This document shows positions 38,356-61,224 of a stretch of DNA of 64,000 bases, piece by piece (the first letter of the stretch is position 1; every line of letters starts with the position of its first letter). The translations under genes were made by a program, and so were the position numbers. A model generated the notes under the pieces. It did not search any database. It was not told the DNA's origin and saw only the letters and a list, made by a program, of their open reading frames with translations. Source of the stretch: Terriglobia bacterium (GTDB lineage: Bacteria; Acidobacteriota; Terriglobia; 20CM-2-55-15); the NCBI GenBank assembly GCA_965198225.1, contig CBDAOY010000008.1, positions 224,001 through 288,000 on the forward strand, read 5' to 3'.

Positions 38356-38622
38356 TGACCTGTAACAATGCTATCGGTACCAGCGTTCGGCGGAACGGCG
38401 TCGGATTTTAGGAGTGACGCCCGAGCCAATGCTGTTTCATTGCGAGGACGTCACGACACCGAAGACGGCGCCGTTGGGCCGAACCCTTCGGGCCGATGGG
38501 GGTTGCGGGCGATCTCTTTGTCGGAAGCCGTCACCGATGAAAGAGCATCGCTTTCCGTCTCCCTCCGCGACCTCGCCCGCAAGACCCATCGGCGATGGTG
38601 CCGATAGCACTGTTACAGGCCA
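38356..38622. mobile_element. MITE-like palindromic element, copy E1 (267 bp)
   Basis: Terminal inverted repeats TGACCTGTAACAATGCTATCGGTACCA / TGGTGCCGATAGCACTGTTACAGGCCA; flanks CTAG and CTTG. Confidence 0.8.
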
Positions 38623-38805
38623 CTTGGGATAGATCAAGCATGCCGGTGACTGCACGACTGACTCTCTCGGCGAAGGTTGGTCGTGCACTGAATCGCGATG
38701 TTTTCGGGGATTCAACTGGCCGGGCAGACAATATCTTTCCCAGAACGCCTTCATGTGCTATCGTTCTGTAACCAAACAACATAGGCATAATAAACAGGGG
38801 GCTCG

Positions 38806-41202
38806 ATGAAGTCGGTTTCCGTTTGGGTTGGAGTGCTTGGCGTGCTGGTTGTGTCCGCCGGAAGTGCCTGGGGGCAAACCCCGAGCACAATGCCGGTTTC
38901 ATCGCAGCAGGCGCTGGTCAACGACTACTGCTCGGGTTGCCACAACGACGCGATTCGTGAAGGTGGGTTTTCATGGGCCACGATCGACCTGGCCGATCCC
39001 GCCCGGAACGCGGAACAAGCCGAAAAGGTGATTCGCAAATTGCGGGCAGGCATGATGCCGCCGGCGGGCGCAACACGACCGGCGGTCGCTGACGCGAAGG
39101 CGCTTGCACTGTCGATTGAAACCGCGATCGATCGATCCGCTTCGGAGTACCCGTTTGCCGGCGCTCCCGAACTCCATCGGCTCAATCGAACAGAATACCG
39201 TAACTCGGTGCGCGAGTTGCTCGACTTGGATGTGGATGTTTCTTCGATGCTTCCGACCGACCAGATGAGCGGCGGCTTCGACAACATCTCCGACGTGCTC
39301 GCTGTGACTCCGGCGCTGGTGCAGGGATACGTCCGGGCGGCAGGCAAGATCAGCCGGCTGGCGATCGGTGACCCTGAAGTGGCCCCGACCATGTCGATGT
39401 ACACCGTGCCGAAGGTCGTCAACCAGCTGCGGCACGTCATGGGCACGCCGCTGGGAACGCGGGGCGGAACCTCCGTAGTCTACAACTTCCCCGCCGACGG
39501 CGATTACACGTTCAAGGTAGCCTTCTACCACGACTTCATCACCGAGCTGTTTGGCGCCAATCTGCCCGAGAACCTCCAGGGCCAGGAACTGGAGATCTCC
39601 CTAGACGGGGCCAGGGTGGCCATCTTCGAACTCGATCCAGAACTCTCCGAACCCGAAGGCACGTTGACGACAGAGTCGGTCCGGATCACGGCGGGCGCGC
39701 ATCGCGTTGCGGCCGCATTCATCTCGAAGTTCGACGGGCCGACCGAGGATGAGTTCCGCCAGGTGGAGCAGTCGATGATTGACGTCACCGGCGCGGTGCC
39801 CGGCCTAGTCGCCCTGCCACACCTGCACACACTGACTATTGCCGGCCCGTTCGTCGTGACAGGAATGTCGGAGACGGCATCCCGTCAGAAGATATTCCGG
39901 TGCAGGCCCGCGTCGGCCGACGCGGAACTGGACTGCGCGAAGAACATCCTGGGGACTCTGGCACGGCAGGCATACCGCCGGCCGATCTCGAACACCGACG
40001 TGGACTACCTGATCAACCACTACGGGGCCGGACGTGAAGAGGGAGACTTCGAGGCCGGGATCCAGATGGGCGTGCAGGCGATCCTCGGGCATCCGGAGTT
40101 TGTCTTCCGATTCGAGAAGACGCCGTCAAACGTCGGGCCAGGGACGAACTACCAGATCAGCGACCTGGAGCTGGCGTCCCGCATGGCGTATTTCCTCTGG
40201 AGCAGCCTGCCCGACGAGGAATTGCTGTCGCTGGCATCGGAGGGAAGGCTCGCCGAGCCCGGGGTGGTGGAACAGCAGGTCCGCCGCATGCTGGTGGATC
40301 CGCGCTCGGCTGCGCTGTCGGACAATTTCGCGTTCCAGTGGTTGCGCCTCCAGACGGTAAAGGAGGCCCAGCCCGAGGCGCTCGTGTTCCCGGAATTCAC
40401 GAGGAACCTCGGCGAGTCGATGACCGAAGAAACGAAGCTGCTCTTCGATAGCATCATGCGCGAAGACCGCAGCGTGATCGACCTGCTGACGGCGGACTAC
40501 ACGTTCGTCGACGAGGTGCTCGCGAAACACTACGGCATCCCGAACGTGCTGGGAAGCCGGTTCAGGCGCGTTGGGGTGACCGACCAGAACCGTTTCGGTC
40601 TGCTTGGACACGGAAGCGTCCTGACGTTGACGTCGCTGGCGAACAGAACGTCTCCCGTCCAGCGGGGCAAGTACGTCATGGAGGTCCTGATCGGATCGCC
40701 CCCGCCTGCGCCGCCCCCGGTCGTTCCCCCCTTGAAGGAGGCGGTGGATAACGAGGTCGTCCTCTCTGTCAGAGAGCGGATGATCCGGCACCGGGAAAAC
40801 CCCGCCTGCTCGGCATGTCACCAGATGATGGATCCGATCGGTCTGACTCTGGAGAACTTCGACGCGATCGGCCGGTGGCGTGCGAACGACAGCGGGTCTC
40901 GCATCGACCCGTCGGCCGAGATGTACGACGGGACGCCGCTCGACGGACCCGCCAGCCTGCGCGAGGCAGTCCTCGCTCGCTCCGAAGCGTTCATCGGAAC
41001 CTTTACGGAGCATCTTCTTTCATATGGTCTGGGCCGCGTGCTCAGTTATCGGGACATGCCCACGGTCCGGTCGATCGCCCGCGAGGCCGCGCAGAACGAC
41101 AAACGTTTTTCGTCGTTCATCCTCGGCGTCGTGAAGAGCGTGCCGTTCCGCTTGAGGCTCGCCGACGAAGAATACACGGCAGATCAGTTGAGAAACCGGT
41201 AA
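38806..41202 (+). CDS. PSD/DUF1592-family di-heme protein (cassette 4)
   Basis: CSGCH..GMMPP; CSACH; collinear, most divergent copy. Confidence 0.9.
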   Translation: MKSVSVWVGVLGVLVVSAGSAWGQTPSTMPVSSQQALVNDYCSGCHNDAIREGGFSWATIDLADPARNAEQAEKVIRKLRAGMMPPAGATRPAVADAKALALSIETAIDRSASEYPFAGAPELHRLNRTEYRNSVRELLDLDVDVSSMLPTDQMSGGFDNISDVLAVTPALVQGYVRAAGKISRLAIGDPEVAPTMSMYTVPKVVNQLRHVMGTPLGTRGGTSVVYNFPADGDYTFKVAFYHDFITELFGANLPENLQGQELEISLDGARVAIFELDPELSEPEGTLTTESVRITAGAHRVAAAFISKFDGPTEDEFRQVEQSMIDVTGAVPGLVALPHLHTLTIAGPFVVTGMSETASRQKIFRCRPASADAELDCAKNILGTLARQAYRRPISNTDVDYLINHYGAGREEGDFEAGIQMGVQAILGHPEFVFRFEKTPSNVGPGTNYQISDLELASRMAYFLWSSLPDEELLSLASEGRLAEPGVVEQQVRRMLVDPRSAALSDNFAFQWLRLQTVKEAQPEALVFPEFTRNLGESMTEETKLLFDSIMREDRSVIDLLTADYTFVDEVLAKHYGIPNVLGSRFRRVGVTDQNRFGLLGHGSVLTLTSLANRTSPVQRGKYVMEVLIGSPPPAPPPVVPPLKEAVDNEVVLSVRERMIRHRENPACSACHQMMDPIGLTLENFDAIGRWRANDSGSRIDPSAEMYDGTPLDGPASLREAVLARSEAFIGTFTEHLLSYGLGRVLSYRDMPTVRSIAREAAQNDKRFSSFILGVVKSVPFRLRLADEEYTADQLRNR

Positions 41203-41217
41203 GGAGAGGAAACATCC

Positions 41218-42588
41218 ATGTTCATCACGAAGAAACACCTATCCCGACGCACCTTCCTGACGGGTGTGGGCGCGACCGTTGCGCTGCCGTTTCTCGAGTC
41301 GATGGTGCCTGCGCAGACGCCACAACGTCTGACCGCAGCCAACCCTCGAACTCGCCTGGCGTGCCTGGAAATGGTACACGGCAGCGCCGGCAGTACGCAG
41401 TACGGGATCGAGCACAACTACTGGATGCCGCCGACCGAAGGCGCCGATTTCGAGTTCGGATACATCCTGGAGCCGCTCGAGAGCTTCCGGGACTACATCA
41501 CGCTGGTCACCCAGACCGACCAGCGCCCGGCCGAAGCGTGGACGGCGGAGGAAGAAGGGGCCGACCACTTCCGTTCCAGCGCCGTGTTCCTGACGGCCGC
41601 TCACCCGAAGCAGACCGAGGGGTCCGATGTCCGGGCAGGGACGTCGATCGATCAGATCTATGCGAACCGGTTCGGTCAGGACACGCCGCTCCCCTCGATT
41701 CAGCTGTGCATCGAGAACGTGGATGCGACGGGTAACTGCGGGTACCACTACAGCTGTGTTTACATGAACTCGATCAGCTGGTCGTCGCCCGAGACCCCGC
41801 TGCCGATGACCATCGACCCGCGAATGGCGTTCGAAGATCTGTTCGGCGCCGGCGGCTCACCCGAGGCGCGGGCGGCCCGGCGACGCGCCAACCAGAGCAT
41901 CCTCGATGGCGTTACGCTCGAAGTGGCGCGGCTCCGGAAAGATCTGGGGCGGCGCGATCAGAACAGGCTGAACGACTACCTGGAGAGCGTCCGCGAGATC
42001 GAGCGGCGCATCGAAAAGATCGAGCAATACAACGCCAGCGGTGCGGAGCGGGAGCTGCCGTCGGCGCCGATCGGCGTGCCCGATTCCTGGGAAGAGCACG
42101 TCAAGATCATGTTCGACTTGCAGGTCCTCGCGTTCTCTGCGGAAGTGACGCGCGTTTCGTCGCACAAGCTCAGCCGGGACGTGAGCAATCGCGTGTTCGA
42201 AGCGAGCGGGAACAAGACGCCGTTCCATTCGGCATCGCACCATGGGTCGACGCCGAAGGGGATCGAGGATTACACGAAGATCAACCGCTACCACATCGAC
42301 CTGTTCGGGTATTTCCTCGACAAGCTCCGGAACACTCCAGATGGAGACGGGAACCTCCTGGATCATTCCATGGTCCTGTACGGCAGCCCGATGGGCGATT
42401 CCAACGTGCACGCGCACAAGCGAGTGCCGATGTTGCTGGTCGGCCATGCCAATGGTCAGCTCAAAGGGAATTGGCATGTCCGCGCACCGGATGAGACCCC
42501 GACCGCCAACGTGCTGCTCGCCTTGCTGCACAAGCTGGGGATCGAACAGGACATCATCGGCGACAGTACGGGAGTCTTGTCGATATAG
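41218..42588 (+). CDS. DUF1552 (HXXSHH) protein (cassette 4)
   Basis: SRRTFL, CGYHYSCVY, FHSASHHG. Confidence 0.9.
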   Translation: MFITKKHLSRRTFLTGVGATVALPFLESMVPAQTPQRLTAANPRTRLACLEMVHGSAGSTQYGIEHNYWMPPTEGADFEFGYILEPLESFRDYITLVTQTDQRPAEAWTAEEEGADHFRSSAVFLTAAHPKQTEGSDVRAGTSIDQIYANRFGQDTPLPSIQLCIENVDATGNCGYHYSCVYMNSISWSSPETPLPMTIDPRMAFEDLFGAGGSPEARAARRRANQSILDGVTLEVARLRKDLGRRDQNRLNDYLESVREIERRIEKIEQYNASGAERELPSAPIGVPDSWEEHVKIMFDLQVLAFSAEVTRVSSHKLSRDVSNRVFEASGNKTPFHSASHHGSTPKGIEDYTKINRYHIDLFGYFLDKLRNTPDGDGNLLDHSMVLYGSPMGDSNVHAHKRVPMLLVGHANGQLKGNWHVRAPDETPTANVLLALLHKLGIEQDIIGDSTGVLSI

Positions 42589-42639
42589 AACCGACCGTTG
42601 AAACAGGTTTAAGAGAAGCGTTAGTTAAAGGAAGAGACA

Positions 42640-44205
42640 ATGAAAACACTCGGACTAAGCTTACTTGCTCTACTCGTCGCGACCACGGCGATCGTTGCCG
42701 CGGCCAACGAGACCGAACTCGTCGAAGCCGCGATGCGCGGGGACACGGCTGAGGTACGCTCGTTGCTGGACGCCGGGGCCGACGTCAATGCGGTTTACGG
42801 TGACGGCAGCACGGCACTGCATTGGGCTGCCGGCAACGGTGATCTGGAACTGAGCCGCCTGCTGCTCGATGCTGGCGCCAGGGTCGATGCCGTCACACGG
42901 ATCGGATCGATGACCCCGCTGTTCATGGCGGCCAGGAGCGGGGAGGCTGGCGTGATCGAGACACTGCTGGAGGCAGGTGCGAGCGCGGACGAGGCCAACG
43001 ACAACGGGACGACGGTCTTGATGAGTGCGGCGGCTTCCGGAAACGTCGAAGCGGTTCGGGCGCTCATCGAAGCCGGTGCGGATGTCAATGCCACCGAGGA
43101 GACCAACGGTCAGACTGCGTTGATGTTTGCGGCCACCCTCAACCGTGCGGAAGCGATCCAGGCTCTGATCTCCAACGGCGCGGACACGGGCGTAATGACG
43201 AAGGTTTCCAAGCTACCGAACCGTGGCCGAGGCGGGCGGCGGTCCGGTCCGGCCGTCGTCGGCGGGATGACGGCATTGCACTTCGCGTGCCGGGACGGAC
43301 AGATGGATGCCGTCCGCGAACTCGTGGCCGGCGGAGCCGACATCAACGCAGTCACGGAGTCGAAACAGACCCCTCCGATCACGGAAGCCATCCTCAATGC
43401 CAATCTCGACATCGCCAAGTTCCTGCTCGGCAACGGCGCCGATGTGAACATTCCGAACGGCGACGGTCTGCTGCCGCTTTTTGCCACCTTGGACATCCAG
43501 TGGAGGCAAAACACCTGGTATCCGCAGCCGAACGTGTCGGAAGAGAGGACCAGTTATCTGGATCTCATGGAGGAAATCCTGGCCCATGGTGCCGACGTGA
43601 ATGCCCGGTTGGGAAAGAGGCTGTGGTACCGGACTTTTCGCTACAGCGGGGGCTGGATCGATCCGGCCGGCTCAACTGCCCTCTGGCGTGCAGCAGAGGC
43701 GAACGATGTGGACGCGATGCGTCTGCTCGCCTCCCACGGCGCCAATCCGACGATTCCGACTGCCCAGGGCACGACTCCCCTGATGGTCGCAGCAGGTTAC
43801 GGCTTCACGTGGCAGGCGACCAACATCAAGCCGGATTCGCGAATCGACGCCCTCAGGCACCTGGTTGAAGAGCTCGGCGCCGACGTCAATGGTAAGGACC
43901 TGCAGGATTACACGGCCTTGCACGGAGCTGCCTACGTGGGCGACGACGACGCCATCATGTACCTGGTGGCCAGAGGCGCCGACGTCGGCGCGCGGGCGAG
44001 TGCCCGCCTCGGGTCCCGGGCCCCGACCCCTGTCGAGCCTGGTACCGGAGACACGGTAACCGACTTTGCGAACGGTCCCCACGAGAAGTCCCTGTTGTTC
44101 CCGGACACGGTCCGGCTGCTGGAGTATCTCGGCTCGGAAAACTCCCACGACTGCCGGTCGACGGGGTGCGTGAACAACACGAAGGAGGATCGGCCACGTC
44201 GTTAG
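42640..44205 (+). CDS. Secreted ankyrin-repeat protein (cassette 4)
   Basis: Signal peptide, ankyrin repeats, VTDFANGP tail. Confidence 0.92.
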   Translation: MKTLGLSLLALLVATTAIVAAANETELVEAAMRGDTAEVRSLLDAGADVNAVYGDGSTALHWAAGNGDLELSRLLLDAGARVDAVTRIGSMTPLFMAARSGEAGVIETLLEAGASADEANDNGTTVLMSAAASGNVEAVRALIEAGADVNATEETNGQTALMFAATLNRAEAIQALISNGADTGVMTKVSKLPNRGRGGRRSGPAVVGGMTALHFACRDGQMDAVRELVAGGADINAVTESKQTPPITEAILNANLDIAKFLLGNGADVNIPNGDGLLPLFATLDIQWRQNTWYPQPNVSEERTSYLDLMEEILAHGADVNARLGKRLWYRTFRYSGGWIDPAGSTALWRAAEANDVDAMRLLASHGANPTIPTAQGTTPLMVAAGYGFTWQATNIKPDSRIDALRHLVEELGADVNGKDLQDYTALHGAAYVGDDDAIMYLVARGADVGARASARLGSRAPTPVEPGTGDTVTDFANGPHEKSLLFPDTVRLLEYLGSENSHDCRSTGCVNNTKEDRPRR

Positions 44206-44225
44206 GAACGGCATGAGATGAGCGG

Positions 44226-44255: not shown

Positions 44256-44272
44256 CATGGGGGAATCCAGGA

Positions 44273-45217: not shown

Positions 45218-45234
45218 CGAAAGGAGAGGCAGAA

Positions 45235-48748: not shown

Positions 48749-49506
48749 ATCTGGCACCTCTGTTCTCACGCACATCGGGTGGGAAGGCGAGGGGAGACCA
48801 TACCTGTGCGCCGACGGGGAAGTCGAATCCCTCCGGCGCGACGCCGACGACGGTGTATGCCTCGCCGTCGAGCGTGATCGCCTGGCCCAGGACGGAAGGA
48901 TCGGCGCCAAAGCGTCTGCTCCAGAGACCGTGGCCCAGGATCACGCGGTACCGGTTGGCGACCTGCTCTTCTTCGGGCAGGAAGGTTCGGCCCATGACCG
49001 GTTCGACGCCTAGGATTTCGAAGAACCCGGGAGATGCGAACATTCCCTGGATGCGTTCGGGTTCGTCGCGGCCTTCAAGATTGACGTCCCAGTACTCGTA
49101 AGCGGCGAGCGTTTCGTAAACGTCGCTTTGTTCCCGCCAGTCGAGGTAATTGGCCGGTGCAACTGAGAAACCTTCGAACTCGAACAGGCTGTCGGGAGAA
49201 CTCTCAGCGAGCATGACCAAGCGGTCGACGTCCTCGATCGGAAACGGGCGGAGAACGATGGCATCGATCACGCTGAAGATGGCCCCGTTGGCACCCAGGC
49301 CGAAGGCCAGCATGAGGCCGACGCTGGCGCTCAGCAACGGCTGCCGGGCGATCATCCGAAAGGAGAAATGGATATCTTGTTTGAAATTGTGCATTTAGGG
49401 CCTGATCCTCCAGTCCGGGAATCATACGGCTCCCGGCAGGCAAAGGTTCCGCCGAAGACTGCTTTGATTGTAATGACGGAGGTTTTCGAGCGTCTTTAAC
49501 AGCTAG

Positions 49507-49767
49507 TGGCCTGTAACAGAGAGAGTGATAGCGGCGTTGCGAGCGCAACGGTACCGGATTCTAGGAGCGCCGCCCGAGGAAATGCTGCTTCATTGCGAGA
49601 AGGCGCGACGACGAAGACGGTGCTGTTCCGCCGCAACCCGAAGGGACGATGGGCCTTGCCAGCCGCCTAGATGAGTCAGGAAACAGCGATGTTTTCCATC
49701 GGCGACGAGTCGGGAGAGGACCCGCAAGGCCCATCGGCGACGCTGTCACTATCTCTGTTACAGGCCA
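49507..49767. mobile_element. MITE-like palindromic element, copy E2 (261 bp)
   Basis: TIR TGGCCTGTAACAGAGAGAGTGATAGCG / CGCTGTCACTATCTCTGTTACAGGCCA; flanks CTAG and CTGG; internal similarity to E1. Confidence 0.8.
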
Positions 49768-49860
49768 CTGGGGCGGAACAAATCCCTGCGAGATGGCGTA
49801 CTTCCACAGCAACCCGGCAACAACTCTCACACGTTCCGGTGGATAGGAGAGGGAAGGATC

Positions 49861-52332
49861 ATGGATTCATGGTTTCGAGATCTTAAGTTCGGCGCCCGGA
49901 TTCTGTGGAAGGACCGTGGCTTCGCGACGACAGCCATTCTGACGCTGGCAATCTGCATCGGCGCCAACGCCGCAGTATTCACGATCGTGAACTCGGTGCT
50001 CTTGAGTCCGCTGCCCGTTCCCGAATCGGACCGGATCATGCTGGTGTCGAACCAGTACCCGAACGCCGGGGTGGGCGACAGCCCGAACAGCGGCGTGCCG
50101 GACTACTACGACCGGCTCCGGGACATCGATGTGTTCGGCGAGCAGGCCCTGTTCGGCGCCCAGGGGAGCACGCTGGACATCGACGGCACACCCCGTCGCG
50201 TTCGAGGTATGCGAGCGACCGCGTCGCTGTTTCGTCTCCTCGGGGTTGGGCCGGTGATCGGCCGAACGTTCGGTGAAGAAGACGGTGAGGTGGGTAACGA
50301 CCAGAAAATCATTCTCAGCCACGGACTGTGGCAGGAGCTGTTCGCCGGATCCTCCTCCGCGCTGGAGAGCGAAGTCCGGCTAAGCGGCCGTCCGTACACG
50401 GTCGTAGGTGTGATGCCGCCGGATTTTCTGTTTGTGGATCCCGAGGTTCGCTTCTGGACCCCGCTGGCTTTCACCGATGAGGACCGCTCCGATGATAATC
50501 GTCATAGCAACAACTGGCGCAACGTGGGCCGCCTGAAACCCGGCGCGACCATGGAGCAGGCGCAGGCTCAGGTCGACGCCTTGAACGCGGCGAACATGGA
50601 GCGGTTTCCATTCTTCCGGGAACCTCTCGAAAACGCCGGGTTCTACACGCGCGTTGAGCCGCTCCAGGAGATGCTCGTCCGCGATGTGCGATCGACGCTG
50701 TACCTGCTCTGGGGCGGGGCGTTCTTCGTCCTGCTGATCGGTGCGGTCAACATCGCCAACCTTGCGCTGGCCCGCTCGGGCCTCCGCCTGAAGGAACTGG
50801 CCACGCGTCTCGCGTTGGGAGCGGCACGCCCTCAGGTGGCGCGCCAACTGATTACGGAAAGCGTGATCGTAACGCTGTTGGGAGGCGTTGCGGGACTGGC
50901 GTTCGGATCATGGATACTGGGAGCCTTCGGCACCATCGGGCTCGACCAGCTTCCGCGTGCCGGCGAGATCCAGATGAACGCAACGGTCGTCGGCTTCACG
51001 CTTGCGATCGCGATCGTTGCGGGGATCTTGATCGGACTCGTCCCCCTCGGCTACGTGTTTCGATCGAACCTCAACCACGTGCTGCACGAGGAAAGCCGCA
51101 GCGGCTCCACGGGGCGTGGCGCACGGGCGATCCGGCGCGGCCTGGTCGTGGCCCAGGTCGGCTTCGCTTTCATCCTCCTCATCGGGGCGGGCCTTTTGCT
51201 GGCGAGCTTCCGCGAACTTCTGGAGGTGGATCCGGGTTTCCGACCCGAAGGTGTTCTGACGGCATCGGTCAGCCCCCCGTCGGTGCGGTATGAGGGAGGC
51301 GATGAGCTCCGCGCGTTCATGGACCGGGCTCTCGAGGGGATTCGCGCGATTCCCGGCGTCGAGGCGGCGGGCTCGACGACCAACGTGCCGTTCGGCGGCA
51401 ACTCGAGCGACAGCGTCATCCTGGCCGAGGGTTACGTCATGCAGCCCGGGGAATCTCTGATCTCCCCCCGGCGGCTGACCGTCACAACGGGCTACTTCGA
51501 GGCCATGGGCGTCGGGCTGGTCCGGGGACGGTTCTTCGGAGCTCAAGACACCGAGGACAGTCCCGGCGCCGTGATCGTCGACGAACGACTGGCGAACAAG
51601 TTCTGGGCGGGTCAGGATCCGATCGGCCGGCGCATGTACATGCCCAGCGACCCGAACGACCTGCTCAAGACCGACGAGAACACCGAGTGGCTCCATGTCG
51701 TCGGCGTCGTGAACGAAGTCCGGTTCGACGACCTGGCAGGGAACCGCAACCAGGCCGGCGCCTACTACTTTTCCTACATGCAGAGCCCGACGCGGGGCAT
51801 CACGTTTGCCGTCCGGACGGCGATGAACCCCGAGTCGCTGACCGAGACGCTGCGCGCCCGGATCGCCGCGGTCTACCCGCAGTTGCCGGTGTTCAACGTC
51901 CGGACGATGTCGGAGCGGATGGAACTGTCTCTGATGCCCCGCCGAGCTTCGATGCTTCTGGCGATAGGGTTCGGGACCATCGCGCTACTTCTGTCGGCAA
52001 TCGGGATCTACGGAGTCCTGGCCTACCTGGTCACCCAGCGCACGAAGGAGATTGGCATCCGCATCGCGCTGGGCGGCACGGCGCGACGGATCTTCTCGAT
52101 GGTGTTGCGCGAAGGAGCCCTGCTGGTTGGCGGCGGCCTCGTCCTGGGGCTTGGCGGGATCTTCGCGCTGCGACAGGCCGTCGGTAACCTTGTCTACGGC
52201 GTCGGGCCGACAGACCCGCTCGTGATCAGCGCTGTCGTTGCCACTCTCGCGGTGGTGGCGGTCGCGGCCTGTGCGCTGCCGGCTCGCCGGGCAACCCTCG
52301 TGGACCCGATCATCACCTTGAACGAACAGTAG
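49861..52332 (+). CDS. ADOP-family duplicated ABC permease (2x MacB-PCD + FtsX)
   Basis: DLKFGARILWK, LAICIGANAAVFT, ELATRLALGA, EIGIRIALGG, VDPIITLNEQ. Confidence 0.92.
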   Translation: MDSWFRDLKFGARILWKDRGFATTAILTLAICIGANAAVFTIVNSVLLSPLPVPESDRIMLVSNQYPNAGVGDSPNSGVPDYYDRLRDIDVFGEQALFGAQGSTLDIDGTPRRVRGMRATASLFRLLGVGPVIGRTFGEEDGEVGNDQKIILSHGLWQELFAGSSSALESEVRLSGRPYTVVGVMPPDFLFVDPEVRFWTPLAFTDEDRSDDNRHSNNWRNVGRLKPGATMEQAQAQVDALNAANMERFPFFREPLENAGFYTRVEPLQEMLVRDVRSTLYLLWGGAFFVLLIGAVNIANLALARSGLRLKELATRLALGAARPQVARQLITESVIVTLLGGVAGLAFGSWILGAFGTIGLDQLPRAGEIQMNATVVGFTLAIAIVAGILIGLVPLGYVFRSNLNHVLHEESRSGSTGRGARAIRRGLVVAQVGFAFILLIGAGLLLASFRELLEVDPGFRPEGVLTASVSPPSVRYEGGDELRAFMDRALEGIRAIPGVEAAGSTTNVPFGGNSSDSVILAEGYVMQPGESLISPRRLTVTTGYFEAMGVGLVRGRFFGAQDTEDSPGAVIVDERLANKFWAGQDPIGRRMYMPSDPNDLLKTDENTEWLHVVGVVNEVRFDDLAGNRNQAGAYYFSYMQSPTRGITFAVRTAMNPESLTETLRARIAAVYPQLPVFNVRTMSERMELSLMPRRASMLLAIGFGTIALLLSAIGIYGVLAYLVTQRTKEIGIRIALGGTARRIFSMVLREGALLVGGGLVLGLGGIFALRQAVGNLVYGVGPTDPLVISAVVATLAVVAVAACALPARRATLVDPIITLNEQ

Positions 52333-54044: not shown

Positions 54045-56714
54045 TCACTCCTGACGGAGAGCCGCGAGCGGGTCGACCCGGGTGGACCGGCGTGCCGGCA
54101 GGTAGCAGGCGAGCATCGTGAGGAGGCCCAGCAGGACCGGCGCACCGACGACAACGATCGGGTCCGTCGTCGTCGTCTCCGTGATGGTCGTCAGTGCATC
54201 GAAATAGGAACCCATGGCCCTGGTCGTCCCAAACGCCAGAATCTGGCCGATGAAGGTTCCGACCACGACCAGGATCGCGCCCTCCTTCAGCACGAGCTTG
54301 AGGACCTGTGTCCTCTGGGCGCCCAGCGCCATGCGGATGCCGATCTCCTTGGCTCGTTGCGCGACCGCGTAGGCGGTGACTCCTCCGAGCCCGACTGCGG
54401 CGAGGATCAACCCGAAGACACCGATCCCGCCGTAGACGAACATAACCAGTCGGACCATGTACATCATCGTTTCAATCTGGTCGCTGAGCAGGCTGACGTT
54501 GAAGAGCGTCAGATTGGGATCGATGGCCGCGATCTCATTTCGGATCGCGCTCCGGATGTCGACGCCGGGATCGGTGCGCACCAGCAGCGTGACTCCCTGC
54601 GCTGAAGGGCGCTCGAAACCGGACGGCGGCATCGGCAGGAAGACGCCCATCCTGGATCGTTCCAGAATCGCTCCGGATCGAAAATCCGGAGCGACGCCGA
54701 TCACTTCGTAGCGATCCTGCTCGACGTCGAGAACCTGGCCGACCGGATCTTCCCCCGGCCAGGTTTCCGAAGCCATGGTCTCGTTGACGATCACGACGCG
54801 AGAATCTTCCGTCTCGTCTGCTGGTCTGAAACTCCGGCCCGGTGCGATTTCGACGCCGACAACTTCGAAGAATCCTTCGCCGACCCGTTCGCTCCGGATG
54901 CTTCGTGCGAGTCGCGCGGATTCGCCCAGGTCGGTGCTGGCCCGGAGTGACTCCTCATCGCCAAACATTCCCAACGGGATGGTCTGGGTCAGGCTGGCAT
55001 GCCGCACGCCCGGAATCCGGCGGATCTGCTCCGGGAGGCGGGAGAAAAATTCCTTCGCCTGCTCTCCGGAGTACCCGTCCCTGACCGGATCGAGCGACAT
55101 CATGTAGAGATTCCGAACGTCGAAACCGAGTTCGACGTTGCCGGACCGCGCAAACCCGAGGACGACAAATCCGGTGAGAAGAAGCAACATGAGCGATCCT
55201 GCGACCTGCTGGAGGACGAGGCCGTTGCGCATGCTGAACCAGCGGTATTTCTTCATCCTCATGTCGGCTCCGCTCTTCAGAGCGGGCGCCACGTCGGCCT
55301 TTGCCGCCTGGAGAGCCGGCGCCAGGCCGAATAGGATTCCGGAGAGAATGCTCAGGCCCAGCGTGAAGAGCAGGGCCGCCCAGCTTATTTCCAGCTCGAA
55401 AGTCATGTATTCGGGGATCATCAGTTCGATCCAGTCCGTTGTCGAGATGGACCACCAGGCAAAGGCGAACCCGACGACTCCTCCGAGCAGGGCCAGGATG
55501 GTGCTTTCTGTGATCAACTGCCGGACGATACGGCCCCGGCTGGCTCCGACCGACAATCGGATCGCGATCTCCTTGGCCCGTGCGCTGCCGCGGGCAAGAA
55601 GGAGCGTTCCGACATTCGAGCAGGCGATCAACAGCGCAAGTCCAACCAGGATCAGGGGGAAGCCCATCACCACGGGGAGATCTTCATCCCGGATCGGCAT
55701 CAGCCTGCCCCCGGCAACCAGGGTAATGCGCCTGCCTTCTCGTATGTCTCTCTCGCCGGCGTCCACCTCCTGCTGGCGGATCATCGCGTCGAGCGCCGCC
55801 TCGGCCTGCTGTCGGGTGACATCGAGAGAGAGCCGTCCAACCACGCTGAACGCTGCGATGTCTCTGTCACGGAGTTTGCCGGACCCGAGTTCCGGGGCGA
55901 TCCTCGGGTCCACTGTCGTGGGCAGCCAGATGTCCGCCGCTGCGAGGACCGGAAGGGCGCCGAAGAAGTCCTCTTCGGCCACACCGATGATCGTCGCCGG
56001 GTACCCGTTGATCCGCAGTATCGATCCAACCACATCGGGATCGCCGCCGAGACGGCCCCGCCAGAATCTGTGGCTGACGACCACAGTTGCCGGAGATCCC
56101 TGGACCCGTTCCGGTCCGGCGAACGTTCGGCCCATCACCGCTCCGGTCTGCAGGACGTCGAAGTAGTTCGGTGTGACCAGGTGACCCCAGGCGCGGCTCG
56201 ATCGATCGTCGGTCTTAACCACAAACGGAACCGGAGAAATGTAGGCCGCAATCGCGGAAAACTGTCCGCTGTTGTCCTGGAAATTTTCGTAGTCGGGGTA
56301 TGAGACCGGCCTGAGCGACGATACGAGTTCGTCCGGGTTTCCGACGGTAGGGATGTCGCGCACGATGAGCGACTCCATCTGGCTGAATGTCGTCGTCGTC
56401 AGGCCGATGCCGATTCCGATCGAGACGATCGAGGCAATCGTGAAGCCTTTCGATCGGGCCAGCATGCGAATCGCGTAGCGCGCGTCCTGGGCCAGCTCGT
56501 AGGCATGTTCGATCGGAACACGGACCGCCAGGTCGAGCAGGAGCTGCGCAATCATGGTGAGCAGGTTGCCCCAGCCGTGACGCTGGGCCGCGTCGCGGAG
56601 GATGTGGTTCGTGTCCTGGATCATCTCTCGCTCGTGGTCGAGGCGAAACTCGTCAGGGAAGGCCCGAACCAACTTCCGGTAGAGCCAGAGTGAAAAAGCC
56701 ATCGTGATCTTCAT
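54045..56714 (-). CDS. ADOP-family duplicated ABC permease with N-terminal prefix domain
   Basis: LYRKLVRAFPDEFR prefix, LLIACSNVG, EIGIRMALGA, VDPLAALRQE; ATGA overlap with padR. Confidence 0.92.
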   Translation of the reverse strand: MKITMAFSLWLYRKLVRAFPDEFRLDHEREMIQDTNHILRDAAQRHGWGNLLTMIAQLLLDLAVRVPIEHAYELAQDARYAIRMLARSKGFTIASIVSIGIGIGLTTTTFSQMESLIVRDIPTVGNPDELVSSLRPVSYPDYENFQDNSGQFSAIAAYISPVPFVVKTDDRSSRAWGHLVTPNYFDVLQTGAVMGRTFAGPERVQGSPATVVVSHRFWRGRLGGDPDVVGSILRINGYPATIIGVAEEDFFGALPVLAAADIWLPTTVDPRIAPELGSGKLRDRDIAAFSVVGRLSLDVTRQQAEAALDAMIRQQEVDAGERDIREGRRITLVAGGRLMPIRDEDLPVVMGFPLILVGLALLIACSNVGTLLLARGSARAKEIAIRLSVGASRGRIVRQLITESTILALLGGVVGFAFAWWSISTTDWIELMIPEYMTFELEISWAALLFTLGLSILSGILFGLAPALQAAKADVAPALKSGADMRMKKYRWFSMRNGLVLQQVAGSLMLLLLTGFVVLGFARSGNVELGFDVRNLYMMSLDPVRDGYSGEQAKEFFSRLPEQIRRIPGVRHASLTQTIPLGMFGDEESLRASTDLGESARLARSIRSERVGEGFFEVVGVEIAPGRSFRPADETEDSRVVIVNETMASETWPGEDPVGQVLDVEQDRYEVIGVAPDFRSGAILERSRMGVFLPMPPSGFERPSAQGVTLLVRTDPGVDIRSAIRNEIAAIDPNLTLFNVSLLSDQIETMMYMVRLVMFVYGGIGVFGLILAAVGLGGVTAYAVAQRAKEIGIRMALGAQRTQVLKLVLKEGAILVVVGTFIGQILAFGTTRAMGSYFDALTTITETTTTDPIVVVGAPVLLGLLTMLACYLPARRSTRVDPLAALRQE

Positions 56715-57079
56715 CGGGCACGCGCCTCACCCTCGAGTGCCGCACGCTTGCTGTGGATGACCTCGACGAGCTGTTCCAGCCGCTCGCATTCGGCTTCCAG
56801 CAAGCGTTGCCCGTCCCTCGTCAGACGGTAATAGCGTCGCCGTTCGTCGTCGTCCTCAGGCGCAGGTCGCTCGTCGGATTCTTCGATCAGCCCTTCTTCT
56901 ATCAACCGTCGGATCGTTCCGTAGAGCGTGGCCGGCCACAGCCGGATCTTCTGGTCGGTCCGTTCGAGCACTTCCTGCATGATCCCGTAGCCGTGCTGTT
57001 CGCGGCCGGAAAGCGAAAGGAGAATATGAAACCAGTTCGCCCGGAGGGGCAGGAATGAGTCGAGTCGCTTCCTGTTCAT
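56711..57079 (-). CDS. PadR-family transcriptional regulator
   Basis: HILLSL, HGYGIMQEV, PATLYGTIRRL, RRRYYRLT. Confidence 0.92.
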   Translation of the reverse strand: MNRKRLDSFLPLRANWFHILLSLSGREQHGYGIMQEVLERTDQKIRLWPATLYGTIRRLIEEGLIEESDERPAPEDDDERRRYYRLTRDGQRLLEAECERLEQLVEVIHSKRAALEGEARAR

Positions 57080-57088
57080 AATAGGATC

Positions 57089-57121
57089 AGTATAATATAT
57101 ATATCAATAAAGATATATATA
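57089..57121 (-). promoter_or_regulatory. padR promoter with palindromic operator
   Basis: TATATATATC-N6-GATATATATA (57096-57121); TATACT -10 box 9 nt before ATG, so probably near-leaderless. Confidence 0.65.
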
Positions 57122-57242
57122 AATCATTAGTCTTTGGGGTCCTCCTCGTTTCAAGACGGATCGGTCTAGATTTTGATTGCCAAATACTGGTCATACCGCC
57201 CACGCTTTGTTACCCTGATCCTGCTTTGGTCCGTGGGGGAAA

Positions 57243-57827
57243 GTGGTGATTCAAAAAATCTTGCGTAGGCCCGTACGCTGGCTCGTGGTTCTAGCTCTTT
57301 TTGTTGCGGTCGTTCCATCACAGGCGCAGAGCCGGCAGCAGCGTGAAGAGCAGCAGCGCCGCGCAGCGGAACAGTTGCAACTGGACCGTCTGAACCGCTT
57401 CGTCGACGATGTTCATCTGCTCTATGAGGCCAGTGGCGAACTGGTTTCCTACCGGGTACGCCCGGAAATGACGTCGTCGGAAATCCGGGTGATCACCGAC
57501 AGGTCCAGGGATCTGGACAGGCAGGCCACCCGAATCATTTCGTTCATCGAGAACGTTGCGCCCTACGTCAAGGGGAACACCGAAGACCTCTGGATAATAC
57601 GACCCCTGAATGAGAGTCCGACTCTCGAAGACAGGTTGACGCTCATCCTGGCGCTCGTCTATCGCGTCGAACCCAAGATCAATCACCTGATCGACCTGAT
57701 GAGCGGTGAGAGCCATCCGGCGATTGAACTCCAGGATCTCCAGGTTGAAGCATCGCTCCCATACCTTGTGGTTGGCGGACTCCAGGTGATCAAGGATCTG
57801 ACCGTCGAGCTACGCGGCACGTTCTAA
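57243..57827 (+). CDS. Hypothetical exported protein
   Basis: Signal-like N-terminus, helical composition, fills intergenic space. Confidence 0.6.
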   Translation: MVIQKILRRPVRWLVVLALFVAVVPSQAQSRQQREEQQRRAAEQLQLDRLNRFVDDVHLLYEASGELVSYRVRPEMTSSEIRVITDRSRDLDRQATRIISFIENVAPYVKGNTEDLWIIRPLNESPTLEDRLTLILALVYRVEPKINHLIDLMSGESHPAIELQDLQVEASLPYLVVGGLQVIKDLTVELRGTF

Positions 57828-57937
57828 GCGTCGCGGCCTCCCAGCTTCTCAAGGTCGAGACCTCCCCGATAGCGGGCTGAAACCTTCCGGATCGGGTCAG
57901 CCCACTGCTGCAGGAACCAGCCCGGGGCATACCCGCA

Positions 57938-58438
57938 ATGGGACATCGAGACGAGCCGAACTCGAACCAAGCGCCCGGTCCGGAGCCCGGCTGGCGAGAA
58001 GATCCCCGCCTGCGGGGCCGCTTTCACCGGCAGTGTCTGGACGACATTCAAGTGCTCGTCCACGACGGCGGTCCCCGATTCTCGTCGCACCGGCCCGAGG
58101 CCGTGTGGGTCACCGTGACCGAATGCCGAGGCGATGTCTTCCGCGGAGTGCTGGTTAACCAGCCCGAGCAACTGCGCCGGGTGTCGAAGGGCGATTCCGT
58201 ACGATTCATCGTGCCCGAGTCCGGCCCGTACCCGCTCCAGGTTTCAGAGAAATACTTGCGTGAGCGAGCCGACTGGGCCATCCACCCTTGCGACGGATGC
58301 GGTTTGTCCGAACTGTTCGATGCGCCCACGGACTTGATCGACAGCGTCTTCGACGTGTCGGACGGTTTCGTGCCGGAGGTGTTCACCGCCCTTTGTGCGG
58401 CATGCGGAGGGCAGTTGATCGTTCAACGAGCGGAATAG
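57938..58438 (+). CDS. Hypothetical protein with C-terminal CxxC..CxxC motif
   Basis: EAVWVTV..FRGVLVNQP (DUF2314-like) then CDGC and CAAC. Confidence 0.55.
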   Translation: MGHRDEPNSNQAPGPEPGWREDPRLRGRFHRQCLDDIQVLVHDGGPRFSSHRPEAVWVTVTECRGDVFRGVLVNQPEQLRRVSKGDSVRFIVPESGPYPLQVSEKYLRERADWAIHPCDGCGLSELFDAPTDLIDSVFDVSDGFVPEVFTALCAACGGQLIVQRAE

Positions 58439-58457
58439 CCAAGGGAACATTGATCCT

Positions 58458-59123
58458 GTGAAGAAGTACGTATCGGAAGTGATCGGGACCTTCGCGCTGG
58501 TGTTTGCAGGAACCGGGGCGATCGTCATTGGAGACACCGCGGGGACGGTTTCCCACGTCGGTGTCGCGCTGACGTTCGGGCTCGTGGTCATGGCTATGAT
58601 CTACGCTCTGGGGGACATTTCCGGCGCGCATCTGAACCCCGCGGTGACACTGGGTTTCTACGTCGCTCGTCGCATGGAACTGACCGAGGTCGGGCCGTAC
58701 ATCTTGAGTCAGTCTGCCGGAGCCGTTCTGGCCAGCGGTGCTATCTTCTTCATGTTCCCGGCCCATCCCACCTTGGGTGCCACTCGACCGGCCGGCTCGC
58801 TGACGCAGTCCTTCCTGCTGGAAGTCATCCTGACGTGGATGCTGATGTTCGTCATCCTGAACGTGTCGACGGGAGCCAAGGAAAAAGGAATGACGGCCGG
58901 AATAGCGATCGGATCGGTCATCGCCTTCGAAGCGATGTTCGCCGGACCCGTGTCGGGTGCGTCGATGAACCCCGCGCGGTCGCTCGGCCCGGCGCTGGTC
59001 TCCGCCCGGATCGACGTCCTGTGGTTGTATTTTGCCGCACCCGCTCTCGGGGCGCTGCTCGCCGTCCCGACTTGCCGTTGCGTGCACGAAGACAACTGTT
59101 GCGCCGAGGAACCCTGCGCGTGA
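58458..59123 (+). CDS. MIP-family aquaporin/aquaglyceroporin, probably an arsenite channel
   Basis: SGAHLNPAVT and SMNPARS NPA motifs; Cys-rich tail; overlaps arsC start. Confidence 0.9.
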   Translation: MKKYVSEVIGTFALVFAGTGAIVIGDTAGTVSHVGVALTFGLVVMAMIYALGDISGAHLNPAVTLGFYVARRMELTEVGPYILSQSAGAVLASGAIFFMFPAHPTLGATRPAGSLTQSFLLEVILTWMLMFVILNVSTGAKEKGMTAGIAIGSVIAFEAMFAGPVSGASMNPARSLGPALVSARIDVLWLYFAAPALGALLAVPTCRCVHEDNCCAEEPCA

Positions 59124-59527
59124 GCCGATCCGGGGACCGACCCGTCAGCCTCCTGTTCGTTTGCGTCGAGAACTCCAACCGCAGTCAGATGGCCGAAGCG
59201 TTCGCACGCATCCACGGCGGCAGTCGTGTTGAGGCGTACAGCTCCGGCTCGAGACCTTCAGGGAAGGTCAACCCCAAGGCCGTCGCTTCGATGCAGGAGC
59301 TCGGTTACGAACTGACTTCCCACCAGCCCAAGTCGCTCTCGGAGATACCCGACGTCGAATACGACTTCGTCGCGACGATGGGCTGCGGAGATGAGTGCCC
59401 CTGGGTGCGCTCGAAGCGGCGCGAGGACTGGGACATCCCGGACCCGAAAAACATGGAGCCGGAACAATTTCGCGAAGTGCGGGGCTTGATCGAACAAAAA
59501 GTCAAAGGAGTCCTGGAAAGTTTGTAG
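59120..59527 (+). CDS. arsC: Arsenate reductase, LMW-PTP fold
   Basis: GTGA overlap; FVCVENSNRSQMAEA P-loop; MGCGDECP; WDIPDPK. Confidence 0.85.
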   Translation: MSRSGDRPVSLLFVCVENSNRSQMAEAFARIHGGSRVEAYSSGSRPSGKVNPKAVASMQELGYELTSHQPKSLSEIPDVEYDFVATMGCGDECPWVRSKRREDWDIPDPKNMEPEQFREVRGLIEQKVKGVLESL

Positions 59528-59574
59528 CGGCAGTAGCTGCTTTGCGAAAAGTACCGCGAGAGAGCACATGTGAG

Positions 59575-59598
59575 GGGGACAGGGCTAGCCCTGTCCCC
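59575..59598. repeat. Perfect 24-bp palindrome centred on CTAG
   Basis: GGGGACAGGGCTAGCCCTGTCCCC. Confidence 0.7.
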
Positions 59599-59650
59599 GC
59601 TGGTTGTTGAGCAGAAAAGTTGGCGAGGGCAGGTGACAAGGGAAACCACT

Positions 59651-59712
59651 ACCCAACTCCCCTCCTCATCTGAGGAGGGGTGGCCCGAAGCGCCGGGTGG
59701 TGTTGATCAGGA
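59651..59712. repeat. Palindromic direct repeat, left of higBA
   Basis: CCCCTCCTCATCTGAGGAGGGG..GAAGCGCCGGGTGGTGTTGATCAGGA. Confidence 0.8.
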
Positions 59713-60021
59713 GCCGGCGTTCGAGAGAATTTCGACTTCCTCGTCCAAAGCTTTCCCAAGTCGGTCCTTCTCGACTTCCAGGTCATATCGATTCTGCAGG
59801 TTGAGCCAAAAGCGTTCCGAGGTCCCAAAAAAGCGACTCAATCGTAGCGCCGTGTTCGCACTGATTGAACGCTTGCCATGCACAATTTCATTGATGCGGC
59901 GAGGGGGGACGCTAATGCCCTTCGCCAACCGATACTGGCTCAACCGAAGTGGCACCAGAAAATCCTCGAGCAGGATTTCCCCCGGGTGAATCGGCTCTAG
60001 AATTTTCTTCCCCATGTTCAT
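59707..60021 (-). CDS. higA: HigA-family antitoxin
   Basis: PIHPGEILLEDFL, RRINEIVHGKRSISANTALRLSRFFGTS.RFWLNLQ; start 60021 or 60015. Confidence 0.92.
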   Translation of the reverse strand: MNMGKKILEPIHPGEILLEDFLVPLRLSQYRLAKGISVPPRRINEIVHGKRSISANTALRLSRFFGTSERFWLNLQNRYDLEVEKDRLGKALDEEVEILSNAGS

Positions 60022-60305
60022 CCTCGGTGATAGTCGACGATTTCGACCGCCTGCGCGTCGGAGCTCTTCCACACGAAGCAGATACGCCACTGATCATTGA
60101 TTCGGATGCTGTGTTGTCCTTTTCTATTGCCGCGAAGCCGCTCCAACCGATTGCCTGGTGGAGTACGCAGGTCACTCAGCGACTCCGCAGCGTCAATCTG
60201 AAGCAGCCTCCGCAGTGCGACCCGTTGGAGTTGCTTCGGAAGAGCCCTACTACGCTCACGAACAAACAGTTTCTCGGTCTCTTTGTCAGCAAAGCTCCGG
60301 ATCAC
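60018..60305 (-). CDS. higB: HigB (RelE/ParE-superfamily) toxin
   Basis: GTG start IRSFADKETEKLF; PPGNRLERLRG; HSIRINDQWRICF; VEIVDYH. Confidence 0.92.
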   Translation of the reverse strand: MIRSFADKETEKLFVRERSRALPKQLQRVALRRLLQIDAAESLSDLRTPPGNRLERLRGNRKGQHSIRINDQWRICFVWKSSDAQAVEIVDYHRG

Positions 60306-60311
60306 ATGAAA

Positions 60312-60346
60312 AGCATAACGCCACGCATTATTAACGTCAAACGTTA
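60312..60346 (-). promoter_or_regulatory. higBA promoter with two overlapping operator palindromes
   Basis: TTGACG-N17-TATGCT 6 nt before GTG (leaderless); ATAACGCCACGCATTAT and TAACGTCAAACGTTA. Confidence 0.75.
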
Positions 60347-60441
60347 TGTCCTTCAAAAGCAAGGGGGCTGACTTCAAATCGCTGTTGGATGAGTTGGAGG
60401 GAAGTGTGAGTGAACCAGCAGTCTGCGCCTGCGGCGCATCC

Positions 60442-60567
60442 ACCCAAACTCCCCTCCTCAGATGAGGAGGGGTGGCGCGAAGCGCCGGGGTGGTGTTGAT
60501 CAGGAAGAACCACCCCGTCTGCACTTGCTGTGCATCCTCCCCTCCTTATATCCAAGGAGGGGAGTTC
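60442..60567. repeat. Palindromic repeat doublet, right of higBA
   Basis: CCCCTCCTCAGATGAGGAGGGG..TGTTGATCAGGA then CTCCCCTCCTT-ATATCC-AAGGAGGGGAG. Confidence 0.8.
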
Positions 60568-60606
60568 GGAGTTGGGGGCAAGTGAGATGTATGCTCTTTT
60601 AACGGC

Positions 60607-60933
60607 CTACGGCCTACGACTTCCCCCCGGCGACTGCGTTTCTTCCAGGTAGTCCAGGATGATCTTTCGGTCTTGCGGGGACGGTGCTCCCATTCCCTGG
60701 TCGTTGATCATGTCGGTGATCACCTGGTCCCACTGGGATCGTGTCAACTCTGCACCGGTGATCAAGCCGGCGTCATGGCATCCGAGACAATGCTCCTCGG
60801 CGACCTTCAGCCCCGTGCCCGGTTTCAATTCCTGGGCTTCCACTCCGCGCGCCTCCGGCTGCGCGCCGACATATGCCGCCGCGAGGAGTAATGCCACTAG
60901 CAAAAGAAAAACTCTCCTGAGGGTGATTTCCAC
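60607..60933 (-). CDS. Small monoheme cytochrome c, SorB-like partner of sulfite dehydrogenase
   Basis: Signal peptide, CLGCH, WDQVITDM..QGM..ILDYL; start GTG 60933 (or ATG 60951). Confidence 0.8.
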   Translation of the reverse strand: MEITLRRVFLLLVALLLAAAYVGAQPEARGVEAQELKPGTGLKVAEEHCLGCHDAGLITGAELTRSQWDQVITDMINDQGMGAPSPQDRKIILDYLEETQSPGGSRRP

Positions 60934-60955
60934 GCGTCCTTCCTCTCGCATCCAG

Positions 60956-61224
60956 CAGCCCGTGGCAGAAGTCTGATGGCTCGCGTTACGGCGGCGTCGC
61001 GCCAGATGCTAGGCGCCGCGCCGACCGATCTGCGGGTCCCGAGAAATGTCGCGTGGCAACAACGCCCGCGTGTGACGCCGCCGTAACCCTCCGGGCGCAC
61101 GGGGGTTGCGGTCGGATACTTTGTTGCTCGTCGTCATGATGAAACCGCATCAGTTCCTCCTCGCGCCTCGTCTCCGCCTCGCAAGACCCGTGCGCGCGAA
61201 CCATCAGACTTCTGCCACTGGCTG
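60956..61224. mobile_element. MITE-like palindromic element, copy E3 (269 bp)
   Basis: TIR CAGCCCGTGGCAGAAGTCTGATGG / CCATCAGACTTCTGCCACTGGCTG; flanks CCAG and CTAG. Confidence 0.8.

Follow-up and report, generated by a model that had tools for sequence, protein, structure and literature searches.

Transposable elements of the miniature inverted-repeat type (MITEs) related to the insertion sequence (IS) IS630 are known from bacteria, as for example Nezha of the cyanobacteria. Three elements of about 270 bp, referred to as E1, E2 and E3, were analysed in a stretch of 64,000 nt from a genome of the Terriglobia (Acidobacteriota; GenBank contig CBDAOY010000008.1, C8:224001-288000 in our numbering), which is called the window in the following. 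E1, E2 and E3 are very probably members of the subfamilies A, B and E of one MITE superfamily of the Terriglobia. The family is an abundant non-coding selfish DNA of soil Acidobacteria, unusual only in its three-armed hairpin core, which is kept while the ends are swapped.

IS630 prefers the TA within CTAG, as the title of Tenzen and Ohtsubo 1991 states (cited in PMC2170065), and for its relative ISY100 ends of 24-30 bp suffice for transposition in vitro (PMC2170065). The system described here resembles both in the CTAG preference with duplication of TA, the inverted repeats of approximately 24-30 bp and the DDE_3 transposase (PMC2170065), while the MITEs themselves comprise no transposase. 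A comparable case is RUP of Streptococcus pneumoniae, a MITE that was matched to IS630-Spn1 and targets TA (Oggioni and Claverys 1999, in PMC2229807). As reviewed there, RUP is likewise non-coding, intergenic and multi-copy, has repeats resembling those of an IS630-family IS of the same genome and often lies in other mobile elements (PMC2229807). However, it is a simple stem-loop of 107 bp (PMC2229807), whereas the elements of the window comprise about 270 bp with a terminal stem and two long arms; furthermore, unlike in the description of RUP, their core is conserved across genera and several sets of tips match different IS630 relatives. The Correia/NEMIS elements of Neisseria are also abundant TA-flanked MITEs with repeats of approximately 24 bp and stably folding predicted transcripts, which insert beside genes, but they are 104-155 bp long, contain an IHF site, form a single stem-loop and differ in sequence and host (PMC2229807). 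The CIR repeats of Caulobacter and Brucella share a phylogenetically conserved, two-armed fold with a linker (Chen and Shapiro 2003, in PMC2229807). They are described as partly MITE-like and have no terminal inverted repeats (PMC2229807), whereas the arms of the present elements are enclosed in an IS630-type terminal stem of about 30 bp. In the account of Delihas' review, bacterial MITEs are single stem-loops, the armed exception being these CIR repeats without terminal repeats (PMC2229807). MITEEc1 is an IS630-related MITE listed in ISfinder (PMC11602168), which is likened here by its description only. No description of the family was found in full-text searches on MITEs of Acidobacteria (judged by titles and abstracts), on IS630/CTAG MITEs, on compensatory structure in IS630 MITEs and on Candidatus Versatilivorator; it may be listed in a MITE census of 183,232 genomes (PMC11602168). 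What appears to set the family apart from the known IS630-type MITEs is the conserved three-armed hairpin core with swapped ends.

The elements of the window, their parts and their flanks are as follows:

E1: 38355..38623 (G38355-C38623), 269 nt, plus strand; full-length subfamily-A MITE (262.7 bits, profile positions 1-270)
Parts of E1: terminal stem 38355-38385 with 38593-38623; arm 1 38386-38483; mini hairpin 38484-38492; arm 2 38493-38592
Left junction of E1: CTAG at 38352..38355, also the internal CTAG of a truncated subfamily-C element and thus a nested insertion site
Right flank of E1: CTTG at 38623-38626
E2: 49506..49768 (G49506-C49768), 263 nt, plus strand; full-length subfamily-B MITE (197.3 bits)
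Parts of E2: terminal stem 49506-49536 with 49738-49768; arm 1 49537-49636; mini hairpin 49637-49645; arm 2 49647-49736
Left junction of E2: CTAG at 49503..49506
Right flank of E2: CTGG at 49768-49771
E3: 60955..61225 (G60955-C61225), 271 nt, plus strand; full-length subfamily-E MITE with tips GCAGCCCGTGGCAGAA (178.0 bits)
Parts of E3: terminal stem 60955-60985 with 61195-61225; arm 1 60986-61086; mini hairpin 61087-61095; arm 2 61096-61194
Left flank of E3: CCAG at 60952-60955
Right junction of E3: CTAG at 61225..61228; its CTA serves, read on the minus strand, as the stop codon (TAG) of a gene for a molybdopterin oxidoreductase (61228-62532)
5' fragment of a subfamily-C element: 38297..38354 including the flanking TA, plus strand; tip GCAGCCCGTGGCAGAA, ending at the TA of its own internal CTAG

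All three elements comprise a terminal stem of about 30 bp, an arm 1 of about 100 nt, a 9-nt hairpin of the form CCC-nnn-GGG and an arm 2 of 90-100 nt. Folded as single-stranded DNA, E1, E2 and E3 showed energies of -83.1, -75.9 and -88.3 kcal/mol (z of -8.27, -8.65 and -7.73), and for each of them none of 200 shuffles reached the native value. A direct alignment showed that the core is common to all three, while the tips are the same in E1 and E2 and different in E3. A preliminary description of the window, made from the DNA letters alone, had placed the elements with boundaries differing from ours by 1-3 bases. Its observations of a shared branched fold, of different termini in E3 and of a CTAG on one flank with a one-mismatch CTAG on the other (CTAG/CTTG for E1, CTAG/CTGG for E2, CCAG/CTAG for E3) agree with the present data.

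The whole genome assembly (6.41 Mb, 9 contigs, 97% complete) was searched for further copies. With E2 as BLAST query, 92 matches were found, and an iterated nhmmer search yielded 348 matches, which gave 120 full-length loci. Clustering of these at 85% identity resulted in the following groups:

Subfamily A: 40 copies, E1 in the window
Subfamily B: 18 copies, E2 in the window
Subfamily C: 18 copies, only the 5' fragment in the window
Subfamily D: 15 copies, none in the window
Subfamily E: 13 copies, E3 in the window
Subfamily F: 6 copies, none in the window
Unclustered: one pair and 8 singletons (10 copies), none in the window

A strand-oriented profile, which discriminates the strands clearly (e.g. 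264 vs 44 bits), found 155 loci at E <= 1e-10 in the whole genome, among them 113 of full length. With up to approximately 270 bp for each of the 155 loci, the family accounts for about 0.6% of the genome.

Of the 110 copies of the subfamilies A-F, 106 allowed the position of both ends to be assigned. Among these 106, 75 have CTA as left flank and 79 have TAG as right flank; 69 are enclosed by TA at both ends, 33 show TA at a single end and 4 lack it altogether. Every subfamily consensus is bounded by CTAG, with a less consistent left flank for subfamily E. Since in relatives TA is constant while the outer bases vary (e.g. CTAG...CTAA, ATAG...CTAG), a TA duplication with CTAG preference is favoured. 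The copies of A-F are in line with this, with some ambiguity left by the palindromic target. CTAG itself is rare, with 28 sites in the window compared to approximately 226 expected from the base composition and 3394 in the genome compared to 22925 expected, which corresponds to a 7-8-fold depletion; 325 of the sites of the genome, about a tenth, lie in or at these elements. With the initial G and the final C of every element, CTAG is restored at both sides, and a copy can therefore sit exactly on a TAG stop codon and leave the protein unaltered. According to the gene calls (4747 calls of a simple caller, covering 82% of the genome), 119 of the 120 copies lie outside genes and 53 of these 119 adjoin a called stop codon. 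Compared to the unoccupied CTAG sites outside coding sequences, of which 406 of 1822 lie on called stops, stop codons are thus used approximately twofold too often.

The genome comprises four DDE_3 genes (PF13358, IS630 family) above the Pfam cut-off. Three of these lie in identical IS copies of 1124 bp with the ends CTAGTGGCCTGTAAC...GTTACAGGTCACTAG. The first 15 bases of the right end of this IS are identical to the tip of subfamily A, and by eye 23 of the first 30 bases agree. Accordingly, E1 and E2, as representatives of the tip type of the subfamilies A, B and D, match this resident three-copy IS at their tips, whereas outside the terminal repeats no sequence is common to the MITEs and the resident IS. 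In the fourth IS the tip reads GTCTCCTGTCCCA and is thus near to the tip of two singleton elements. The transposase bounded by the same ends, proposed as a check in the preliminary description, was thereby found for E1 and E2 and not for E3. The copy ratio is 73 MITEs of A, B and D to 3 IS copies. Tips of the A/B/D type were also observed in inverted orientation at a distance of 1404 bp (G000:C8:708190-709593; G000 denotes the source genome), compared to a shorter tip span of 1128 bp in two IS copies; the pair could mark a further, fourth copy of the IS that carries an insert, or else some other element.

Relatives also harbour IS630-family gene matches, for example 87 in G003, 36 in G005 and 10 in G012. 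The IS630-family elements of the relatives are all CTAG-flanked with other tips, several of which resemble the tips of MITE subfamilies of those genomes. Among 23 relatives searched for both, seven comprised MITE and IS, two only the MITE, three only the IS and 11 neither; these counts are descriptive, as related genomes are not independent.

Movement of the elements is reflected by several observations. E3 is flanked on one side by the gene of the molybdopterin oxidoreductase (61228-62532, minus strand) and on the other by a gene for a small cytochrome c (60607-60951). The same gene pair occurs without E3 in the three relatives G001, G002 and G003, with spacers of 121-134 nt compared to 399-412 nt here. 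Since the same genes adjoin with a short spacer, the site of E3 is empty in these genomes, although the exact sequence of the empty site is not readable at an identity of the genes of only about 75%. For E1 and E2, the flanking regions show no synteny with these relatives, their left and right sides matching different places in G002 and G003. A fragment of a fourth element (57 nt at 38299-38355, nhmmer positions 2-58, E 5.6e-10) directly adjoins E1. By eye it agrees with the C consensus at all bases except one; it is interrupted at its internal CTAG, where E1 starts, and the remainder of the C element is absent. A further nested copy was found at G000:C9:672650-673195, where an E element has received a B element at its internal CTAG. 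At this site, five extra bases (TCTAG) were observed after the right end before the host element continues, which may be the footprint of an earlier insertion and excision. The many unrelated loci, the CTAG/TA flanks, a transposase gene with the same tips and the empty orthologous site, which had been named as a check, support the earlier reading of the elements as non-autonomous mobile DNA.

Derivatives of the elements were found as well. A D-type derivative missing exactly arm 1, with one common junction, occupies 4 unrelated CTAG-flanked loci, and an A-type derivative missing arm 2 occupies 2-3 loci. Both deletions run between short direct repeats of 4-5 nt at the base of the hairpin. Since arm-less derivatives still spread, neither arm is indispensable. 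In addition, 19 CTAG-flanked stubs of two fused IS/MITE tips were detected at unique loci, 17 of them of 23 bp and 2 of 32 bp (examples outside the window: C4:330358-330380, C7:694960-694982 and C8:74384-74406). They look like scars of a deletion of the interior hairpin between 4-nt repeats inside the terminal repeats.

A comparison of the subfamilies showed that the ends of C and E are 82-85% identical, while their arms 1 are identical to only 50%; the arm 1 of C is nearest to that of two singletons bearing other ends. One singleton combines an A-type left end (96%) with an F-type right end (82%). The elements are mosaics, in which ends and arms have been recombined as modules between subfamilies. 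Furthermore, in four of the six subfamilies arm 1 is weakly similar to arm 2 when the latter is reverse-complemented (z 3.1-5.9) and not similar to arm 2 directly, which hints that the whole element may derive from one long palindrome centred on the mini hairpin.

The distribution of the elements was followed in relatives with E1 as query. Within the taxonomic family of the source genome, matches occurred in 14 of 23 genomes (8 of 26 genera, the source genome included), and among 16 genomes of the class that belong to other families, one contained a match. The copies examined in relatives are all full elements of about 270 bp, in which detectable sequence is kept mainly in arm 1. An exact pattern of the core, searched in one genome per species, was found at at least 70 loci. 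Among the matches listed, all but one came from records of Terriglobia or Acidobacteria/Acidobacteriota (including Candidatus Versatilivorator), the remaining one being from a record titled 'uncultured bacterium'. Viral contigs showed 0 matches to the core pattern and gave no sign of a carriage by phages, a single exact pattern being weak evidence of absence. A transfer across genera, suggested by A-type copies in G020 with 96-97% identity, was discarded: since G020:C13:1-1822 is 99.9% identical over 1822 nt to G000:C9:202359-204180, this contig is mis-binned. Some small contigs of G020 seemingly originate from an organism like the source of the window.

For the analysis of covariation, an alignment of 36 sequences was used, comprising E1-E3, 20 other copies of the genome (all subfamilies and singletons) and 13 copies from six relatives. 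RNAalifold predicted 65 pairs, of which 52 showed double changes that keep the pairing. The amount of paired cells was 95.9% compared to 75.4% in shuffles. The covariation score of 0.565 was far above that of shuffles (0.183, with 0 of 500 as high) and of slid partners (at most 0.118), and the covariation noted in the preliminary description is therefore statistically sound and significant. Compensated pairs were found in arm 1 (15 of 19), at the base of arm 2 (10 of 14) and in the terminal stem (27 of 29). The terminal stem comprises 29 pairs, and 94.8% of its cells are paired across the 36 sequences. As both ends would bind the same transposase, the terminal repeats must match each other. 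The ends differ wholesale between subfamilies and track different IS, so that the compensation of the terminal stem is not a stepwise, RNA-like covariation. Accordingly, the inner terminal stem is complementary as described earlier, but its covariation is mostly a wholesale swap of inverted repeats that match different IS630-family IS. The proposal of a family selected on shape could likewise be retained only in part, as the covariation of the two arms is real and significant, while derivatives without a whole arm were still transposed.

Within the subfamilies, 223 uncompensated cells were found compared to 25 compensated ones. This indicates that pairing is maintained in the multiplying lineages and not in the resting copies. 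The 25 compensated cells correspond to 19 events, 16 of them seen in a single copy, while at most 3.3 cells would be expected if the sides changed independently. This excess would be compatible with a multitude of source copies that differ slightly, or with a certain degree of correction templated by the hairpins. Apart from the stems, unpaired motifs such as GGATTCTAGGAG and CGACAACGAAGACGG are conserved across genera.

With regard to a coding function, all subfamily consensuses are free of stop codons in 2-3 of the six frames over nearly the full length. This exceeds a rough expectation of about 7% per frame for 91 codons at the given base composition, and the stop-free frames might make in-frame insertions less harmful. 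Of 39 A copies, 38 retain an undisrupted open reading frame (ORF) of 64 codons. The internal ORFs of the elements showed no match to any Pfam family. Since the frames shift between subfamilies and no Pfam match was found, protein coding was rejected, in line with the earlier statement that no convincing protein is encoded.

Taken together, the following course of events is proposed. DDE transposases of the IS630/Tc1-mariner type would move the elements in trans by binding to the terminal inverted repeats, with the resident transposase as the probable source of this mobilisation. Insertion would take place at the TA of CTAG, whereby TA would be duplicated and CTAG restored by the G...C ends of the element. 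The internal part of approximately 210 bp can be regarded as a set of DNA palindromes, namely two hairpin arms of about 100 nt and the 9-nt hairpin. Proliferating lineages would keep these palindromes complementary, while inserted copies would decay, and ends and arms would be exchanged between subfamilies by recombination. The fold would act as DNA, or with the same effect in either orientation, and not as a one-strand RNA gene; a candidate role is that of a hairpin or cruciform which favours synapsis or makes an insertion tolerable. Our best guess is that the core exerts a cis effect, at the DNA level or independent of orientation, by which the success of full-length copies would be raised. 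It is also conceivable, albeit doubtful, that the unit selected is the three-armed core itself, as an orientation-independent cis device, for instance a cruciform or hairpin that joins the two ends or renders an insertion harmless to the operon. Such a core would repeatedly have taken over, by recombination, the terminal repeats of different IS630-family transposons and would thus be a parasite of several parasites, maintained by its shape.

A number of observations weigh against this explanation. Since ends of 24-30 bp suffice in the case of ISY100, a transposase model gives no reason why at least 8 genera have preserved the core, of about 210 bp, by means of compensatory changes. An IS with the C/E tip GCAGCCCGTGGCAGAA, the type of E3, was not found in the source genome (97% complete), where GCAGCCCGTGGCAGAA occurs 11 times outside MITEs without any pair at IS distance, nor among the IS examined in the sampled set of relatives. 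The divergence of subfamily C is nevertheless just 1-2%, although no cognate IS was found for it. CTAG is palindromic, and a duplication of TA, a duplication of CTAG and a CTAG within the repeat are therefore indistinguishable here; the sole separation of the readings of a TA and a CTAG duplication is given by flanks of relatives such as CTAG...CTAA. Finally, between co-directional genes subfamily B showed 11 copies in the same and 1 in the opposite orientation, and subfamily E 1 in the same and 7 in the opposite orientation. Both skews rest on small numbers, and the pooled subfamilies are unbiased.

The main rival explanation assumes that the core is a functional structured RNA (a small RNA, a cis-regulatory or an mRNA-stabilising 3' structure) riding on MITE ends, as the preliminary description had also suggested with a structured RNA family. 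The strong covariation in both arms, the loop motifs conserved across genera and the skew of subfamily B towards the orientation of the genes point in this direction. An RNA of one strand tolerates G:U pairs, but not A:C pairs. With the structure of the plus strand only, the six subfamily consensuses showed G:U at 14 and A:C at 4 positions, as expected for an RNA. However, this signal arose from the one-strand structure prediction and vanished with pairs predicted from both strands, for which G:U and A:C amounted to 8 vs 3 in the six subfamilies and 15 vs 14 in all lineages, and it was consequently dismissed. One-sided transitions within the subfamilies likewise comprised 42 events of the G:U type and 34 of the A:C type (p 0.42). 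Over all copies between co-directional genes, 41 have the same and 32 the opposite orientation (p 0.35), and at stop codons the orientations are balanced with 28 vs 28. The two strands fold equally well overall. The more stable strand is the plus strand in 35 of 40 copies of A, in 14 of 15 copies of D and in all copies of B (18) and F (6), whereas it is reversed to the minus strand in C (18 of 18), and E is split (7 of 13). In Rfam, 0 matches at gathering score were found in the whole window; around E1 the best by E-value (0.65) was a microRNA model with 16.8 bits compared to a cut-off of 70. Pieces of E2 and of other copies were present in short contigs of three metatranscriptome runs of one study and in none of a fourth run. 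One of these contigs, which differs at 1 position, spans the right part of E2 and continues for 61 nt into the flank belonging to this copy, while most flanks are uncovered. Although this would be in line with an RNA, such contigs show neither strand nor ends nor level and prove no transcript, with a carry-over of DNA into the libraries being possible. Strand-specific tolerance of G:U and an orientation bias, the two marks of a structured RNA gene, are both not observed, and the element spreads despite the loss of a whole arm. Altogether, the RNA part of the earlier suggestion was not supported, and a functional RNA is regarded as unlikely.

The pairing could also be kept by a mutational process alone, i.e. 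hairpin-templated repair or template switching in quasi-palindromes, without selection or function. The excess of the 19 pair-preserving double changes with their 16 single-copy cases, the loss of whole hairpins between direct repeats of 4-5 nt, which marks the palindromes as mutationally active, and the strand symmetry of the fold would be in accordance with it. In contrast, the predominance of uncompensated cells indicates that such a correction, if any, is minor. The singleton double changes may mark distinct source lineages, and the conserved unpaired motifs cannot be explained by a correction of stems. This process is therefore judged rather unlikely as the full explanation. A movement of the elements by a system that recognises hairpins (IS200/IS605 Y1, PATE-like, or repetitive extragenic palindromes (REPs) with their RAYT transposases), in which case the likeness to IS630 would be coincidental, is highly improbable. 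While the prominent internal hairpins and an insertion beside a fixed tetranucleotide are also typical features there, the elements end in long inverted repeats that agree in their first 15 bases with the resident IS630-family IS, the flanks are symmetric with TA/CTAG, and the hairpin arms are dispensable. In size and architecture they are unlike the REPs of 20-40 bp as described in PMC3733652. The features of REPs and REPINs, palindromes of 20-40 bp with a GTAG/CGTC tag, were not found in these elements of about 270 bp with different tips and CTAG flanks, whereby no search for RAYT or Y1 genes was made.

An IS630-type MITE whose core would act as DNA remains the preferred interpretation, and it has consequences for annotation. 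Annotators and RNA-motif hunters will keep meeting the family, as its strong covariation mimics an RNA gene. It provides a natural example that covariation statistics alone cannot tell a DNA palindrome from a functional RNA, while tests of strand symmetry and orientation can. If the core indeed aids transposition or buffers insertions at stop codons in operons, it would show why some MITEs outdo their parent IS.

With regard to the neighbouring genes, the two genes around E3 (60607-62532, minus strand) are likely a two-gene unit that is split by the element. The oxidoreductase is sulfite-oxidase-like (Oxidored_molyb 8.6e-51, Mo-co_dimer 3.4e-20), and the cytochrome c gene showed a weak Pfam match with an E-value of 0.0036, which was under the cut-off. 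The first start codon of the latter lies 3 bases from the element. E1 is located upstream of a gene for a PSD3/DUF1587 protein with a cytochrome c domain (38806-41202), and E2 upstream of a gene for a MacB-like permease (49861-52332; MacB_PCD 9.4e-14).

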